Sequence record: NC_055781.1
From: Escherichia phage p000v
Reading direction: 5' to 3' (one strand)
DNA length: 64,000 nucleotides
Shown: piece after piece, positions 2,877 through 47,071 of the stretch
How positions within the stretch are numbered: position 1 is the first letter of the stretch
How the letters are laid out: each line of letters begins with the position of its first letter
Notes under the pieces: generated by a model
What the model was told of the DNA's origin: nothing
What the model saw: the letters and a program-made list of their open reading frames with translations, nothing else
Databases searched by the model: none
Translations under genes and position numbers: made by a program

Positions 2877-3165
2877 AATTTATGGCATCCCTGAAGAAGT
2901 TGGACGTTGTCCAGGATGTTATACTGTTACAAAACTTTTAAAGGAGCTCAATGCTCCTTATACATTTTATAAAGTCCTCACTAATAATGGTAAGATTGAA
3001 TATGACCGTCCTTTAATCGTATCTCTTGCTAAACGTGCAGGATTCACTTCACTTAATATTCGTTATCCTGTCATATTTTTAAATGATAAGAAACAAAAGA
3101 ATATTGCAGAGTTTAAAAAGTCCTTGATTTCATTAGGATATGACTCTGATATCATAGAAGATTGA
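2842..3165 (+). CDS. nrdH: glutaredoxin-like protein, start uncertain (GTG at 2842 proposed)
   Basis: IEIYGIPEEVGRCPGCYTVTK thioredoxin-fold CxxC motif; no in-frame ATG nearby, the ORF-track N-terminus 2713.. overlaps the upstream gene; AAGGA 12 nt before GTG. Confidence 0.55.
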   Translation: MEQNSNLKNKIEIYGIPEEVGRCPGCYTVTKLLKELNAPYTFYKVLTNNGKIEYDRPLIVSLAKRAGFTSLNIRYPVIFLNDKKQKNIAEFKKSLISLGYDSDIIED

Positions 3166-40791: not shown

Positions 40792-42612
40792 ATGATTAAA
40801 AATGAAATTAAGGTATTGTCGGATGTAGAACATATTAAGAAACGTAGTGGCATGTATATTGGTTCTTCTGCTAAAGAAGCCCACGAGCGTTTTTTGTTTG
40901 GTAAATATCAACAAGTTGAATATGTTCCTGGTCTGGTTAAATTAATCGATGAGATTATTGACAACTCGGTTGATGAAGCTATTCGTACATCATTTAAGTT
41001 TGCAAATAAAATTGATGTGCAAATTAAAAATAATCAAGTTTCGGTGGAAGATAACGGACGTGGTATTCCTCAAGGTTTAGTTACCGACCAAACAGGTGAA
41101 CAAATTCCTGGGCCTGTAGCAGCCTGGACTATTCCAAAGGCCGGTGGTAACTTTGGTGATGACTCTGAACGTAAGACTGGTGGTATGAACGGCGTCGGGA
41201 GTAGTTTAACTAATATCTTCTCTACGTTGTTTACAGGCATCACGTCAGATGGCGAAAATGAAATCACTGTTAACTGTTCAAACGGAATGGAAAACAAATC
41301 ATGGTCTTCTAAGAAATCTAAAGGTAAAGGCACTAAAGTAATCTTCACTCCTGATTTCACTTCATTTGAAGAGCATAATTTATCTCAAATTTATTTAGAT
41401 ATTACTTTAGACCGACTTCAAACATTGGCAGTCGTTTATCCTGATATCAAGTTCACATTTAATGGTAAAAAGGTCGATGGTAATTTTAAACGATTTGCTA
41501 AACAATTTGGTGAAGATAACATCATTCAAGAAAATGATAAAGTCTCTATAGCATTCACAACATCACCAGATGGCTTCCGTCATTTAACTTATGTGAATAA
41601 CATCCATACTAAAAATGGTGGACATCATGTTGAATGTGTAATGGACGATATCTGCGAACATCTTTTGCCGGGTATTAAAAAGAAATATAAGGGTATTGAA
41701 GTCACTAAAGCTCGTGTTAAAGAATGTCTCACAATGTTGATGTTTATTAGAGACATGAGCAACATGCGTTTTGATTCTCAGACTAAAGAACGTTTAACGT
41801 CAACGTACGGTGATATTCGTAATCATATCCAATTAGATGCTAAGAAAATTGCTCAGGCACTTCTTAAAAATGAAGCCTTGATTATGCCTATTGTTGAAGC
41901 AGCATTAGCTCGTAAATTGGCGGCAGAAAAGGCTGCAGAAACTAAAGCAGCTAAAAAGGCAACTAAAGCTAAGGTTCATAAGCATATTAAAGCTAACCAA
42001 TGTGGTAAAGATGCAGATACGACATTGTTTTTAACAGAAGGTGATTCGGCAATTGGATATCTCATTGATGTTCGTGACCGTGAACTACATGGTGGATTCC
42101 CATTACGTGGTAAGGTGATGAATAGCTGGGGTATGTCATATGCTGATATGATGAAGAACAAAGAGCTCTTTGATATCTGTGCTATCACGGGTCTTATTCT
42201 TGGTGAAAAAGCAGAGAATACGAACTATCGTAATATTGCAATTATGACCGATGCCGATCATGACGGCCTTGGAAGTATTTATCCTGCTTTGCTTGCTTTC
42301 TTTAGTAATTGGCCTGAATTGTTTGAACAAGGACGTATTCGCTTTGTTAAAACACCTGTAATTATTGCACAAATTGGCAAAACTCAAAAATGGTTTTATA
42401 CTGTAGCTGAGTATGAAGAAGTTAAAGATACACTGCCTAAGCATAGTATTCGATACATCAAGGGATTGGGCTCACTTCAGCGGGATGAATATAAAGAAAT
42501 GATTCAAAACCCTGTGTACGACGTAGTTAAACTTCCTGAAAATTGGAAAGAACTATTTGAAATGCTCATGGGTAACGACCCTGAACTCCGTAAAGATTGG
42601 ATGCTAGGATAA
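40792..42612 (+). CDS. 39: DNA topoisomerase II large subunit gp39 (GyrB-like), uninterrupted
   Basis: 606 aa; GHKL ATPase region (IDEIIDNSVDEA) and TOPRIM (LFLTEGDSA, IMTDADHDG); no split into 39 and 60. Confidence 0.9.
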   Translation: MIKNEIKVLSDVEHIKKRSGMYIGSSAKEAHERFLFGKYQQVEYVPGLVKLIDEIIDNSVDEAIRTSFKFANKIDVQIKNNQVSVEDNGRGIPQGLVTDQTGEQIPGPVAAWTIPKAGGNFGDDSERKTGGMNGVGSSLTNIFSTLFTGITSDGENEITVNCSNGMENKSWSSKKSKGKGTKVIFTPDFTSFEEHNLSQIYLDITLDRLQTLAVVYPDIKFTFNGKKVDGNFKRFAKQFGEDNIIQENDKVSIAFTTSPDGFRHLTYVNNIHTKNGGHHVECVMDDICEHLLPGIKKKYKGIEVTKARVKECLTMLMFIRDMSNMRFDSQTKERLTSTYGDIRNHIQLDAKKIAQALLKNEALIMPIVEAALARKLAAEKAAETKAAKKATKAKVHKHIKANQCGKDADTTLFLTEGDSAIGYLIDVRDRELHGGFPLRGKVMNSWGMSYADMMKNKELFDICAITGLILGEKAENTNYRNIAIMTDADHDGLGSIYPALLAFFSNWPELFEQGRIRFVKTPVIIAQIGKTQKWFYTVAEYEEVKDTLPKHSIRYIKGLGSLQRDEYKEMIQNPVYDVVKLPENWKELFEMLMGNDPELRKDWMLG

Positions 42613-43409
42613 TGAATTATCGTAAAATTTATGATAAACTTATCGCTGCGGCTAAAAACCGCAGCACTATTCCTAATTATACTGAAACTCACCATATTTT
42701 GCCTAAATCTATGGGTGGGAGTAATGCTAAATCAAATCTAGTTAAAATGACCCCTAGAGAGCATTTTATCGCCCATTTATTGCTTTATAAAATTCATAAG
42801 AACCGTTCTATGCTTATGGCTATTAGAGCTTTTTACATGGGAGCTAGAAATTCTAGAGATTATGATTGGCTTAAACAAGAATTCTCTAAAGAGCACTCTA
42901 GATTTATGAAAGAATGGATTGCTAAAAATGGCAACCCATTTAAAGGTAAAAAACATACTAAAGCAACAAGAGAATTAATGTCACATATTGCTTCACAACG
43001 TATAGGCGAATTAAATCCGTTTTATGGTAAAACTCATACGCAAGAAGCAATAGATAAAATAATACAGGCCAACAAGTTATCTTGGGAGAATGGGCGAAAA
43101 GCACCTGTAAAAACAAAAGAACACCAGGATAAAATAACTAAATCAAGAATGGAAACATTTAAAACAAAAGGATTTAAACCATACACTCCTAGGTCGGAAG
43201 AAACTAAAGCTAAGACTAGAGAGTTGTATAAATCTAAATATGAAAGAAGGCCTATAAGAATCACAAGTGTAAAAACAGGTGAAACTATTGATTTTAACTA
43301 TCTTTATGAATTAAGGGAGTATTTAGGTATAGGGTCTTCTAATATATTGAAAGCATTAAATAATCCTAACAGAACCTGCAAAGGTTATAAAATGTGTTGG
43401 ATGTCCTAA
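42612..43409 (+). CDS. HNH homing endonuclease with NUMOD3 repeats (freestanding mobile gene)
   Basis: HNH motif ETHHILPKSMGGSNAKSNLVKMTPREH; repeats NPFKGKKHTKATRE and NPFYGKTHTQEAIDKI; ATG overlaps gene 39 stop. Confidence 0.8.
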   Translation: MNYRKIYDKLIAAAKNRSTIPNYTETHHILPKSMGGSNAKSNLVKMTPREHFIAHLLLYKIHKNRSMLMAIRAFYMGARNSRDYDWLKQEFSKEHSRFMKEWIAKNGNPFKGKKHTKATRELMSHIASQRIGELNPFYGKTHTQEAIDKIIQANKLSWENGRKAPVKTKEHQDKITKSRMETFKTKGFKPYTPRSEETKAKTRELYKSKYERRPIRITSVKTGETIDFNYLYELREYLGIGSSNILKALNNPNRTCKGYKMCWMS

Positions 43410-43430
43410 GCTCCTTCGGGAGCTTCATTT
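43408..43430 (+). terminator. intrinsic terminator (AAGCTCC-ttcg-GGAGCTT then T-rich)
   Basis: UUCG hairpin right after the HNH gene. Confidence 0.5.
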
Positions 43431-43451
43431 TAATTTTAATAAGGCTTAATT

Positions 43452-44552
43452 ATGAAAGTTATGTTTATCCCATCTCGCGCAGTCCCATTTAACCCAGAAC
43501 GTGTACAAGGTGGTCTTGAAGCAGTACATTTAAATGTATTGAAATATCTTGTGTCCATCGGTGCTGATATTGATTATATCGGCTTTGATAATGACACGTT
43601 TGGTGACTGGAAGGTTAATCATCATCCTGTTGGTCATCTGACTAAATTCAGTCTAGGTATGAGTTATACTATGGCTCGTAAGATTGTTGAACTAGCCGGC
43701 ATCCATGAATACGATTTTGTTGTTACTATGGAACCGACTAAACTAACCGTTCAGGCAATTAAAGACGCAGGTCTCTCTAAAGTTCATAAGAATTTTATGG
43801 CAACACCATTTGAACCGGTATCTCGTGGCATTGTTCAAATTTGGGACCAGACTATTCAAATTCATAAGAATGGTGGTAAGAGTTATGCTCCTACTAAAGC
43901 CTTCCGTGAATTTGAACGCAAATATTGTTATATGACTTCAGGTCTGACTGACAAAATTGATTATGATTATTGGCGAGCAAATCCGTTGTTTGAAGCCGAA
44001 GATTATCCGGTTATTTGTTTGACTGAAAAGCCAGAAGTTCTTCCGGCGACGGATCTGATTATTAGTGCACAACGTTATGACACTAAAATGCGTCGTACTG
44101 ATGTTGCTCTTGAAGCGATTAAAGCACTAGGCGAAAATGGTGCAGGATACTGTCCTAGTAAATGGGCACCACCAGCTAAATATCCTGTTATTATTGATGC
44201 TCCACACAGCGAAATCATGGAACGTCTTAAAACAGCTAAAGCACTTATCAATACGTGTCCTGACACGGGTACGGTAGAGAATAGTTCTATTGAAGCCATC
44301 TCTAAAGGTGTCCCTGTGATTCAGTTAGTTTTTAAGGATTATCCGCACGCGACATTCGAATATGACCCAGATACTGTGCGTGTAGAAATTGATTCCTCTA
44401 CTCCTAAGAAAGAAGTAGTTGCGCTTTACACAAAAGCTGTATTAGAATTCACTGACACATACGAAGCTCGAGTTAAACGTGCTGAAGCAGTATGGAAGAA
44501 GTATAACCGAGATGCAGTTGTTGCGATGTGGGATAAAATCTTCACAGCGTAA
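43452..44552 (+). CDS. GT-B fold glycosyltransferase (GT4-like), candidate DNA hydroxymethylcytosine arabinosyltransferase
   Basis: 366 aa; N-terminal MKVMFIPS...GGLEAVHLNVLKYL and C-terminal TGTVENSSIEAISKGVPVIQ resemble the GT4 E-x7-E/PVI motif. Confidence 0.65.
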   Translation: MKVMFIPSRAVPFNPERVQGGLEAVHLNVLKYLVSIGADIDYIGFDNDTFGDWKVNHHPVGHLTKFSLGMSYTMARKIVELAGIHEYDFVVTMEPTKLTVQAIKDAGLSKVHKNFMATPFEPVSRGIVQIWDQTIQIHKNGGKSYAPTKAFREFERKYCYMTSGLTDKIDYDYWRANPLFEAEDYPVICLTEKPEVLPATDLIISAQRYDTKMRRTDVALEAIKALGENGAGYCPSKWAPPAKYPVIIDAPHSEIMERLKTAKALINTCPDTGTVENSSIEAISKGVPVIQLVFKDYPHATFEYDPDTVRVEIDSSTPKKEVVALYTKAVLEFTDTYEARVKRAEAVWKKYNRDAVVAMWDKIFTA

Positions 44553-44568
44553 ATCCTGAATCGCCTGA

Positions 44569-44619
44569 GGCACTATTACACATAAGATGATAGATTATAT
44601 GGTCTTTAGTAATAGTGCC
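44569..44619 (+). repeat. 11-bp perfect inverted repeat GGCACTATTAC / GTAATAGTGCC with 29-nt AT-rich loop
   Basis: read directly; lies between the glycosyltransferase gene and the small ORF before rIIA. Confidence 0.6.
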
Positions 44620-44644
44620 CTAGGAATCTACTGAAGAGAATATT

Positions 44645-44845
44645 ATGAGAACATATAACGTGGACTTGGAACTTTTTGATAAAGCAGTGCTCCGGGAATT
44701 CCGGCTTATCCAAAGATTTTTTGATATCGAATCAGCAGAGTCCTTTAAAGAACGCTTTAAAGAAATTCGATATAAAATACAAACCGATACAGCTACTAAA
44801 GAAGAACTTCTTGAAGTAGCAGAAATTTTTAAACGTAACTTGTGA
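44645..44845 (+). CDS. hypothetical protein (rIIA.1 position)
   Basis: 66-aa ORF with GAAGAGAATATT RBS. Confidence 0.4.
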   Translation: MRTYNVDLELFDKAVLREFRLIQRFFDIESAESFKERFKEIRYKIQTDTATKEELLEVAEIFKRNL

Positions 44846-44857
44846 TGAGAGAAAAAT

Positions 44858-47071
44858 ATGATTATTGAAACGGCTAAAGAAACGATTATTGGTTCAGGCG
44901 GTAAGAGCACAGCATTCACTATTCAAGGCAATAGCAAAGTTTATAAGATTTTGTCTAATGACCTTTATACAAACAAAGAATTGGCTTGTGTACGTGAATT
45001 AATTACAAACTGTATCGATGGACAAATTCTTAACGGTTGCACTGATAAGTTTATTGTTCAGGCTCCAGGTCGTTTAGACCCACGCTTTGTAGTTCGAGAC
45101 TTTGGTCCTGGTATGAGCGATTTCACCATTAGAGGTAATGACGAAGAGCCAGGAATCTATAACTCATATTTTGCTTCAACTAAAACATCGAGTAACGATT
45201 TCATCGGTGGATTCGGACTCGGTTCTAAAGCTCCGCTAGCATATACCGATACGTTTAACCTTACGTCTTATCACAACGGTGAAGTTCGTGGTTACGTAAT
45301 CTACCAAGATGACACAGGTCCACAAATTAAGCCGACCTTCGTAGATAAGATGGGTCCTGATGACCGTACGGGTGTAGAAGTAGTTGTACCGGTTAACCCG
45401 GAAGATTTTGAAAAGTTCGCATCCGAAATTGCATATGTTATGCGTCCTCTAGGTGATATTGCAGAAGTTCGTGGTGTTAAAGATATTAAATACTTCCCGG
45501 AATTTGACGATGTATATTTGGCCAAGGAAGCTCCATGGGGTGAACGTGGTAATATCATGGCTGTTTATGGCGGTATTGTATATCCAATCGGAAGCGTTAT
45601 TAAAGAACAAACATGGATGATGACACGATGCACTACAGCTTATATTAAATTCCCTATGGGTGAACTAGATGTAGCTCCGTCTCGTGAAGCATTGTCATTT
45701 GATAAACGTACGGTAGCAAATATCCATAAACGCGTTGCAGAAATCGATGCTAAATTGTTCGCTGAAGATTCTAAGAAATGGATTGATTGTAAATACCCAC
45801 GTCATGTGTTCCGTGAAATTGATTCTCTTGGCTATACCGCTCGTAAATACATGGAAAAGGCTGGGTCTAATATTGAATCACTGAAATACTCTAAAGAACA
45901 ACTAACTTATTCTGAGTTGTACAAACGTTTTAAAATGGGGCCTGAGTGGTGTAATCTTGGTGTCGTATACGATATCGTTGAATCCCCTCGTCTTCGTCGT
46001 ATTCGTGAAAGTGGTAGCTCAACGGCAACCATTTCAATTAACAGTCTGATTGGCATTAACATTAAAAACGTTGAAATTGTTATTGACGACGTTAAGGGAC
46101 GCGTTCCATTAATGCGAGCTCTTAATTCAATTGAAATGTCTAAAGACGAGGTTAAATTAACTGGTAAAGTTCCACGCGGTTTTGGTAAAAGCGTACTATT
46201 CGTTGACCCTACAGACGAAGATGCAATGAAACTTCTGGAACGCCTTAAAGTTATCTTTGATGGCGACAACATTAACATGTACAAGACTTCAGAGCTTTTA
46301 CAAATCGTTAAGCCATGGATTGAAGTCAGGAAACGGACTAATGAGCCTCGTCCTAAATCGCCAAGTGCTCATCGATTCTTTAAGAATGAAAACGATGTTT
46401 GGGTATCAGAAGACCTCTTTATTCCGGCAAGTGAAGCAGATGAAATCCAAGGTTATGCTATAGTTCGTAATCGTTCTAATGCTGAATGTCTTGACGCAGA
46501 TAAAGGTTGGTTGAACTATGACTCCAATTTCTTGACCCGTATTGCTGATTTGTCAGGTATTAAAGAGTTCACTGTAGTTCGTCCACAGATTGCTAAGAAA
46601 GTTCGTAAACTTGGTGAAGTAGAATGTTTGTTCGAAAAATCAATTAATGACTATATTACGCTAATCGATAAAGTGGATTATGATGAGTATGTATCACCAA
46701 GTCGTAGAGCACAGCCTTATTTGAATCATATTACTCGTAATGAAGAGCTTAACTTCCTTAGTAAGTATTTTAGCTCTAAGAACAAAGAAATCAGTAAAGA
46801 CTTTGCAAAACTCTCAACAGTAAATAATCGTTGGGGATGGAATCGATTCGCAGGTGCTACTAATACAGACATGAATAAGAAGTTAGAACTGTGTGCTAAA
46901 ATTTTCGATAAGCTTAAAGATAATGCTTACGATAATGATGATAAAATGGTTATTGAATTCGAAACCAATTATCATATTGTGTCAGAATACATGGGACGAC
47001 GTGGTACTCTTTCCAAAGAACAGGTCGCTCAAATCGTTAAATTCATGAAGGCCGTGGAAGCGGCCAAATAA
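44858..47071 (+). CDS. rIIA: rIIA protein
   Basis: 737 aa; N-terminal GHKL-ATPase-like region; immediately upstream of rIIB. Confidence 0.9.
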   Translation: MIIETAKETIIGSGGKSTAFTIQGNSKVYKILSNDLYTNKELACVRELITNCIDGQILNGCTDKFIVQAPGRLDPRFVVRDFGPGMSDFTIRGNDEEPGIYNSYFASTKTSSNDFIGGFGLGSKAPLAYTDTFNLTSYHNGEVRGYVIYQDDTGPQIKPTFVDKMGPDDRTGVEVVVPVNPEDFEKFASEIAYVMRPLGDIAEVRGVKDIKYFPEFDDVYLAKEAPWGERGNIMAVYGGIVYPIGSVIKEQTWMMTRCTTAYIKFPMGELDVAPSREALSFDKRTVANIHKRVAEIDAKLFAEDSKKWIDCKYPRHVFREIDSLGYTARKYMEKAGSNIESLKYSKEQLTYSELYKRFKMGPEWCNLGVVYDIVESPRLRRIRESGSSTATISINSLIGINIKNVEIVIDDVKGRVPLMRALNSIEMSKDEVKLTGKVPRGFGKSVLFVDPTDEDAMKLLERLKVIFDGDNINMYKTSELLQIVKPWIEVRKRTNEPRPKSPSAHRFFKNENDVWVSEDLFIPASEADEIQGYAIVRNRSNAECLDADKGWLNYDSNFLTRIADLSGIKEFTVVRPQIAKKVRKLGEVECLFEKSINDYITLIDKVDYDEYVSPSRRAQPYLNHITRNEELNFLSKYFSSKNKEISKDFAKLSTVNNRWGWNRFAGATNTDMNKKLELCAKIFDKLKDNAYDNDDKMVIEFETNYHIVSEYMGRRGTLSKEQVAQIVKFMKAVEAAK

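Follow-up and report, generated by a model that had tools for sequence, protein, structure and literature searches.

In a stretch of 64,000 nucleotides from Escherichia phage p000v (NC_055781.1; here called the window, in which position 1 is the first letter), a homing endonuclease gene (HEG) interrupts the end of gene 39, which encodes the large subunit of DNA topoisomerase II. Comparisons with related genomes indicate that this HEG is probably a free-standing, promoter-less HNH endonuclease gene of the Mob type that has specialized on the 3'-terminal part of gene 39 in T-even phages. Site-specific occupancy, a sporadic distribution, and recent horizontal spread with co-converted flanks were directly observed, as were intact catalytic residues and the repair of the host gene by a tail carried on the cassette. 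Gene 39 is both the host gene and the presumed target gene of the endonuclease.

The window represents an RB69-like Mosigvirus, and the region of interest is 96 to 98% identical to Mosigvirus phages such as phi25-307. Compared with the empty Mosigvirus allele, it carries an insertion of 800 bp (Table 1) that is flanked by the 7-nt direct repeat TTGGATG (42597-42603 and 43397-43403). The insertion point lies inside the coding sequence of gene 39, 12 nt upstream of the native stop codon; therefore, the cassette carries a substitute tail for gp39 and leaves the native tail as the last codons of the HEG. The empty allele reads ...CGTAAAGA-ATGGATGTCCTAA-GCTCCTTCGGGAGC (i.e., gp39 ends in RKEWMS-stop, with the terminator directly after it), while the occupied allele reads ...CGTAAAGA-TTGGATGCTAGGATAATG...(HEG)...TGT-TGGATGTCCTAA-GCTCC. 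In the HEG frame, the displaced native tail is read as the final three codons (W-M-S) and the stop. The last codons of the cassette-supplied gp39 tail (CTAGGATAA) hold a Shine-Dalgarno-like AGGA ahead of the HEG start.

An earlier reading of this DNA, made from the sequence alone, had noted that the HEG start shares a nucleotide with the gene 39 stop, and it does: the TAA at 42610-42612 and the ATG overlap at A42612 (TAATG). The ORF listing and Pfam also agreed with its view that gene 39 is a single open reading frame (ORF) without a 39/60 split; the host reading frame is uninterrupted. Its placement of the HEG between gene 39 and a glycosyltransferase gene was half right, since the glycosyltransferase gene is located downstream in the window but the insertion lies inside the gene 39 coding sequence, upstream of its stop. 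The terminator that it had assigned to the HEG turned out to be that of gene 39 and to lie outside the insert: an identical hairpin directly follows gene 39 in the HEG-less phages FP43 and RB69. For annotation purposes, the last four codons of the HEG ORF and the terminator belong to gene 39, and the C terminus of gp39 is substituted in HEG-positive phages.

The proposal that the gene is an inserted mobile cassette was supported by its presence and absence among near-identical phages and by a copy with 99.5% nucleotide identity in a second genus, where the flanks are ~75 to 80% identical. We surveyed ~162 Mosigvirus records that match positions 42000 to 44600 at an identity of at least 90%. 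The junction, which the sequence-only reading had suggested comparing among relatives, is polymorphic: 18 of these records contain the whole stretch, including the HEG, which is absent from ~90% of them. The other records match in two pieces that span 1801 or 1820 bp (versus 2601 bp), with exactly 800 bp missing at one site, and the RB69 site is empty. The closest flanks to those of the window (99.3% identity on both sides) were found in the HEG-less phage FP43. In the HEG-positive phages AV118 and ECO111 5-P, the downstream gene is only ~91% identical to that of the window, while the HEG ORF is 98.6 to 99.4% identical. Because the nearest flanks lack the HEG and the HEG is near-identical where its neighbors diverge, its distribution in these records is sporadic and does not follow flank similarity. 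Its location is constant (i.e., always the end of gene 39) in Mosigvirus and Tequatrovirus records alike.

In Tequatrovirus, the HEG follows gene 39 in 8 records (of ~500 or more) that represent six phages (fPS-90, F1, FN, BYEP01, FL12, and CJY920), with a nucleotide identity of 99.3 to 99.5%, in genes 39 that are otherwise ~70 to 80% identical to that of the window. The gene 39 sequences of fPS-90, F1, and BYEP01 are 93 to 100% identical to those of RB32/PST up to approximately window position 42204; beyond this point, they are ~98% identical to the window and only ~80% identical to RB32. Approximately 390 nt of Mosigvirus gene 39 upstream and ~90 nt of donor-genus DNA downstream accompany the HEG in this genus. 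At all four Tequatrovirus loci examined, the DNA past the HEG is of Mosigvirus origin and comprises the terminator and, from the glycosyltransferase gene, the ribosome-binding site and the initial 48 nt of coding sequence. A 6-nt microhomology (CTGACC) marks the right junction of this block with the native Tequatrovirus gene 39 tail CTTCGTAAAGAATGGATGAGCCAGTAG. We interpret this tract as a fossil of cross-genus co-conversion in the direction from Mosigvirus to Tequatrovirus. The two junctions point to one transfer, homologous on the left side and illegitimate on the right side, that was followed by spread within Tequatrovirus, including to CJY920.

The sequence-only reading had associated the HEG with the glycosyltransferase gene. 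This association did not hold, as the gene found next to the HEG on the 3' side in Tequatrovirus is rIIA.1; the HEG is instead associated with the gene 39 end as its presumed target. A related suggestion, that the HEG could drive marker exclusion of the modification gene, receives weak support from the ~48 nt of glycosyltransferase sequence that hitchhiked into Tequatrovirus; against it, the HEG and the glycosyltransferase allele are unlinked within Mosigvirus.

Several further observations concern the Tequatrovirus copies. In the T4-type phage CJY920, the 39/mobA/60 split occurs together with the present HEG, so that a single host gene harbors two different HNH HEGs (L006, 139-3798): 39/60 is split by a full-length MobA (272 amino acids [aa], GTG start), and the end of gene 60 is occupied by the present HEG. 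In HEG-positive Tequatrovirus loci (L003-L006, 3841-3915), the right junction creates an in-frame chimeric micro-ORF of 24 codons (MKVMFIPSRAVPFNPD + LRKEWMSQ) just past the terminator, with the Mosigvirus glycosyltransferase ribosome-binding site. In Shigella phage SP21535, a Tequatrovirus without the HEG, the 3' end of gene 39 is a patchwork (L018, 1260-1600): a Mosigvirus-type block (approximately window positions 42204-42347) is followed by a Tequatrovirus block and then, at 42426-42539, by a block with 100% identity to the HEG-linked allele. Since SP21535 and the HEG-positive BYEP01 have single-nucleotide polymorphisms in common, SP21535 probably descends from a HEG-positive ancestor that lost the gene.

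Two short recoded patches near the end of gene 39 (Table 1) are candidate recognition or self-immunity sites. Patch 1 is present in all HEG-positive alleles of both genera, while FP43, RB69, RB32, and PST have the native version. It is kept without patch 2 by two HEG-less phages, i.e., JM17 (Mosigvirus) and SP21535 (Tequatrovirus), and the opposite combination (patch 2 with a native patch 1) occurs in the IMG/VR contig L030. A model in which immunity or cleavage depends on patch 1 alone was favored on the basis of JM17 and SP21535 and was downgraded after the combination in L030 was found. Exact-pattern scans of IMG/VR for further mosaic alleles returned only phiE142 and L030. A blastn search for the lineage that donated the recoded end of gene 39 found nothing between the HEG-linked alleles and the native ones (~88% identity).

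The HEG-less alleles include a class that resembles a footprint of the cassette (L010-L015, ~1655-1700; L030, reverse strand, ~2976-3060). In these alleles, the DWMLG-stop tail of gp39 reads CTTGGTTAA instead of CTAGGATAA and is followed by TTGATAG or TTGA, the displaced native tail, and the terminator. They are most simply explained as HEG deletions, with either direction (i.e., deletion product or precursor) compatible with the sequences, and two synonymous differences from the HEG-positive alleles suggest that they derive from an older variant of the cassette. The end of the NHEP36 allele matches the product that would be expected of recombination between the 7-nt repeats. Two HEG copies (L020 and L021) are frameshifted in the same A6 run (window positions 42948-42953; GGTAAAAAACAT), so that the HNH domain is no longer joined to the DNA-binding part; these frameshifts reflect either recurrent inactivation and decay at a slippery run or homopolymer sequencing error. 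Taken together, the alleles fit a cycle of gain, decay, and loss.

The cut site likely lies within ~42474-42597, for two reasons. This is the only region where HEG-positive and native Mosigvirus alleles differ. Additionally, the Tequatrovirus right junction and the native gene 39 remnant on a contig that carries a distant relative of the HEG (L022; see below) both begin at CTTCGTAAAGA, and the Mosigvirus insertion is located at the end of this motif, so that the three junctions fall within ~12 nt.

The HEG ORF runs from the ATG at 42612-42614 to the TAA at 43407-43409 according to the ORF listing and its translation. An automatic ORF call had placed the start at the upstream TTG at 42597; the homologues begin with MNY or MNF, and thus the ATG is the real start. 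The sequence-only reading was borne out by the ORF listing as regards the ORF, by a family profile and an alignment as regards its HNH motif (ETHHILPKSMGGSNAKSNLVKMTPREHFIAH), and by Pfam as regards its two NUMOD3 repeats. The protein comprises an N-terminal HNH domain (~aa 1-75), NUMOD3 repeats at ~aa 107-124 and ~134-150 (PF07460; two stretches, E = 4.6e-9, 36.5 bits versus a cutoff of 20.4), and, in the structural model, a predicted C-terminal beta-beta-alpha-alpha-beta DNA-binding domain (aa ~213-263). It matches PHROG 655 ("homing endonuclease"; E = 1.9e-54), and ~20 GenBank phage records already label it as a homing endonuclease. The HNH pattern is ETHHILPKSMGG...N...H...H. An alignment of 40 family sequences shows no variation at N42, H51, and H55 and almost none at H27/H28; the protein therefore has the residues typical of the HNH superfamily (i.e., a catalytic His in an HH/DH dyad on strand 1, a structural Asn, and a distal His/Asn metal ligand on the helix), and its motif aligns with the HNH core of McrA.

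While a search of the Protein Data Bank (PDB) with the single sequence gave only a marginal match to McrA, the profile of 40 sequences matched HNH domains (E = 9e-5 to 3e-4, with that of McrA at 9e-5) and the I-TevI DNA-binding domain (1I3J; E = 7e-5). The AlphaFold2 model of the protein (predicted local distance difference test score [pLDDT], 89) contains a beta-beta-alpha core formed by strands 25-28 and 43-46 and helix 48-62. Its top PDB fold match is a weak one to I-HmuI (1U3E; probability 1.0; E = 4e-3; template modeling [TM] scores, 0.20/0.30), followed by Cas8-HNH and McrA, and no fold match reaches an E value of 0.001. In the six full HEG copies examined, the ORF is intact and the catalytic residues are kept. 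Codon 239 (43326-43328), in the C-terminal DNA-binding domain, encodes Gly in the window and Asp in the five other full-length copies examined. The HEG is not part of an intron or intein: the gp39 frame is continuous up to its stop codon, and the HEG is read from a separate start. An Rfam search of 41500-45000 gave no family at an E value of ≤1 and thus no group I intron match. The insertion point is nevertheless within the host coding sequence, which qualifies the free-standing status of the gene.

A search of 5.8 billion proteins showed that the nearest relatives of the HEG are only 41 to 45% identical at the aa level (P0002, P0003, and P0004). All three placed relatives in this range are located directly after the gene for the topoisomerase II large subunit in other metagenomic T4-like phages. 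In the contig of P0002 (L022), the start and stop overlap as GTGA, and the HEG ends in a native gene 39 tail that was displaced; L026 has an ATGA overlap, and the HEG of L025 starts 34 nt past the stop. An extension of the gene 39 association to the wider family was rejected, as P0005 and P0006 (39 to 40% identity) are located in an unrelated PrkA/DUF444/SpoVR context; therefore, the association is limited to the closer subfamily. Immediately upstream of its topoisomerase gene, L022 also encodes a protein of 235 aa that contains an Endonuclease_7 domain (1144-1851); it may represent a homing endonuclease of the Endo VII type, similar to F-CphI, that flanks the other end of the gene.

Neither a late promoter (TATAAATA) nor a MotA-type middle promoter was found near the HEG, and sigma-70-like matches were at the level of chance (9 observed versus 8.7 expected). 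The sole near match, TATAAAGA at 42490 inside patch 1, was rejected as a promoter because it is conserved in none of L022, L025, and L026. Since no promoter was found, we infer from the sequence that the HEG is co-transcribed with gene 39. The 5' coding region of the HEG can form a perfect hairpin (Table 1). The predicted RNA fold of 42570-42680 has a minimum free energy of -29 kcal/mol (z = -3.6 versus shuffled sequences), and the AGGA at 42606-42609 pairs in it with a UCCU at ~42671-42674, ~65 nt downstream. This model is consistent with HEG translation that is coupled to that of gene 39 and possibly limited by the hairpin. A hairpin that sequesters the ribosome-binding site has been reported for T4 mobE.

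In gene 39, HATPase_c and DNA_gyraseB scored above the Pfam cutoffs, and Toprim and TOPRIM_C scored below them. The glycosyltransferase gene downstream is followed in the window by rIIA.1 and rIIA; its RB69 orthologue, ORF003c/gp3, has been proposed to be a DNA arabinosyltransferase (PMC6024577, PMC13326640).

Table 1. Features at the gene 39 end of the window, with variant alleles listed by carrier
Feature	Position or carrier	Strand	Description or evidence
Gene 39 (39+60, unsplit), large subunit of DNA topoisomerase II	40792..42612	+	606 aa; ORF, Pfam, annotation in relatives
Recoded patch 1 in gene 39	42474..42495	+	Just past KGLG motif; SLQRDEYKE for native SLEKSEYRE; 11/22 nt changed
Recoded patch 2 in gene 39	42567..42588	+	Next to insertion point; GNDPEL for native GDDSEL
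Insertion of 800 bp versus empty Mosigvirus allele	42597..43396	+	Four-way alignment; empty records, 1801 bp versus 2601 bp
Cassette-supplied gp39 C terminus	42597..42612	+	D-W-M-L-G-stop replacing native E-W-M-S-stop; alignment
Homing endonuclease coding sequence (HEG)	42612..43409	+	265 aa; ORF, Pfam, PHROG, profile, and fold evidence
RNA hairpin, perfect, 7 bp	42645..42665	+	GCUGCGG-CUAAAAA-CCGCAGC; in HEG 5' coding region
Displaced native gene 39 3' end	43398..43409	+	TGG ATG TCC TAA; identical to gene 39 end in FP43 and RB69
Intrinsic terminator	43408..43435	+	AAGCTCC-TTCG-GGAGCTT then CATTTTAATT; hairpin and T-run
Glycosyltransferase, orthologue of RB69 ORF003c/gp3	43452..44552	+	364/366 aa identical; PHROG 8302
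Footprint allele	TH12, LF82-4, phiEC1, TH58, OLB35, CCU7		Both patches, DWMLG-stop, 7 nt, then ATGTCCTAA
Footprint allele with patch 1 in native form	IMG/VR contig L030		Footprint and patch 2
Repeat-excision allele	NHEP36 (HEG-less)		Both patches, end GATTGGATGTCCTAA
Patch-1-only allele	JM17, SP21535		HEG-less
Frameshifted HEG	AV118 (+1 A), ECO111 5-P (-1 A)		Same A6 run

A mechanism by which a Mob-type enzyme would maintain and spread this gene can be outlined as follows. The HEG would be transcribed with gene 39, and the TAATG overlap and the AGGA 2 nt upstream of the start would couple its translation to that of gene 39 and allow only a low level of it. During mixed infection, the NUMOD3 repeats and the C-terminal helix-turn-helix of the protein would bind the conserved last ~135 bp of gene 39 in a HEG-less genome, and the HNH domain would nick or cut within this segment. 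The recombination-dependent repair of T-even phages would then copy the HEG and flanking DNA from the HEG-positive genome, which would itself be protected by the patches at 42474-42495 and/or 42567-42588 as well as by the insertion.

Several observations weigh against this interpretation. The Pfam HNH, HNH_4, and HNH_5 models score below their gathering thresholds (E = 0.012 to 0.016; ~16 bits). The patches are separable both ways (JM17/SP21535 versus L030), and for the cut site only a range, and no precise position, can be given. Ordinary recombination could in principle account for a single cross-genus event. Furthermore, two frameshifted copies and seven HEG-less footprint alleles indicate that part of the population is decaying or has lost the gene. 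Such decay would also be expected of an inert passenger that was acquired once and inherited vertically, with its patchiness due to repeated deletion and not to homing. The seven footprint alleles do resemble HEG deletions in which the cassette-type tail of gp39 and the displaced native one are kept only 4 to 7 nt apart, NHEP36 resembles a repeat-mediated excision, and frameshifts are present in two copies. However, loss alleles are expected in, and compatible with, a normal homing cycle. The HEG is 98.6 to 99.6% identical across backgrounds that differ by up to 9% in neighboring genes and across genera that differ by 20 to 30%, and the flanks of the window are closest to those of a HEG-less phage. 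We consider an inert passenger highly improbable.

The cassette might instead move by ordinary homologous and illegitimate phage recombination, with the nuclease inactive or acting elsewhere. T-even phages recombine at a very high frequency, and the microhomology join at the Tequatrovirus right junction requires no specific nuclease. Without site specificity, however, it is hard to explain how four diverged members of the subfamily (41 to 45% identity) came independently to occupy the same gene end; the clustering of the Tequatrovirus, L022, and Mosigvirus junctions around CTTCGTAAAGA and the conservation of the catalytic residues also argue against recombination of this kind, which we regard as improbable. 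Another alternative retains the nuclease and relocates its target: the enzyme would cut hundreds of bp or more away, as described for SegG, outside the last 135 bp of gene 39, and the patches would be hitchhiking polymorphisms. Free-standing T4 endonucleases are indeed described as cutting hundreds to thousands of bp from their own genes (PMC2988022), and the Tequatrovirus tract reaches ~390 nt upstream. Nevertheless, HEG-positive and native Mosigvirus alleles differ essentially only within 42474-42611, and the upstream sequence is 99.3% identical to that of the HEG-less FP43, with no other immunity polymorphism visible nearby. A distant target is therefore unlikely, and we favor a Mob-type enzyme that acts at the end of gene 39.

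As a type of element, this HEG is ordinary, while the record of its recent spread is unusually clear, and the fossil of cross-genus co-conversion is its most notable aspect. The public genomes constitute a natural experiment that includes empty and occupied sites, footprints, single-patch alleles, and a cross-genus tract with a mapped illegitimate junction. This set of alleles provides substrates for mapping the site and immunity determinants of a Mob-type enzyme. The tract documents DNA flow from RB69-like to T4-like phages, which are considered genetically isolated (PMC6024577) and have been described as unable to recombine. Tentatively, and with nearly balanced confidence, we suggest that the endonuclease itself may have initiated this flow from an arabinose-modifying Mosigvirus to a Tequatrovirus with glucosylated hydroxymethylcytosine; for lack of homology on one side of the break, repair would have continued into the arabinosyltransferase gene and ended by microhomology joining. 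If true, homing endonuclease breaks at conserved genes can drag adjacent nonhomologous DNA, including DNA modification genes, across genera, and the enzyme would have to act on differently hypermodified DNAs.

We found no paper that describes the target, insertion architecture, or spread of this HEG; the genome papers of phiC120 and fPS-90 merely list the gene, and it is mentioned neither in a preprint on MobA (bioRxiv 10.1101/2022.08.31.505936) nor in a review of T4 mobile elements (PMC2988022). The combination of a MobA-like HNH domain with an unrelated DNA-binding part agrees with the description of the Mob family in the latter. Full-length MobA of CJY920 is 61% identical to the HNH domain of the present protein (aa 1-71), with nothing significant beyond, and tblastn matches to regions annotated as mobB, mobD, and mobE show 33 to 44% identity. 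On the basis of these similarities and of traits shared by the Mob family (i.e., free-standing, promoter-less, and sporadically distributed genes), we assign the HEG to the Mob-type free-standing HNH homing endonucleases as a new member. MobA likewise targets the gene for the topoisomerase large subunit, and its element, too, has a diverged version of host coding sequence around its insertion point (bioRxiv 10.1101/2022.08.31.505936). Unlike MobA, the present enzyme has an unrelated C-terminal region with two NUMOD3 repeats and a small helix-turn-helix domain. It is located at the last 12 nt of the gene and not at the 39/60 junction, and its host protein is unsplit, with no 50-nt bypass; the T4 locus (L008) shows the 39/60 split and the bypass, while gp39 of the window does not. 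The locus thus corresponds neither to a MobA/gene 60 bypass cassette nor to an intron-encoded HNH gene of the I-HmuI/I-TevIII type.

I-HmuI, an intron-encoded HNH nicking enzyme of Bacillus phage SPO1, has the same layout (i.e., an N-terminal HNH domain, an extended linker, and C-terminal DNA binding) but differs in its intron, and the identity to the present protein is 19% over 89 columns. MobE in nrdA of Aeromonas phage Aeh1, like other HEGs located within coding regions, is likewise a HEG inside a conserved essential gene, with a cassette coding sequence that restores the host protein (PMC2988022; bioRxiv 10.1101/2022.08.31.505936); in the present case, only the last four codons are displaced, and gp39 remains one polypeptide with a substitute tail of 5 residues. 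SegG/SegF are GIY-YIG enzymes with distant cut sites that were mapped experimentally, whereas the present enzyme is of the HNH type and has only a candidate cut region. The expected outcome is the same, i.e., unidirectional conversion with co-conversion of flanking markers (PMC2988022), and a natural tract of this kind is visible in Tequatrovirus.

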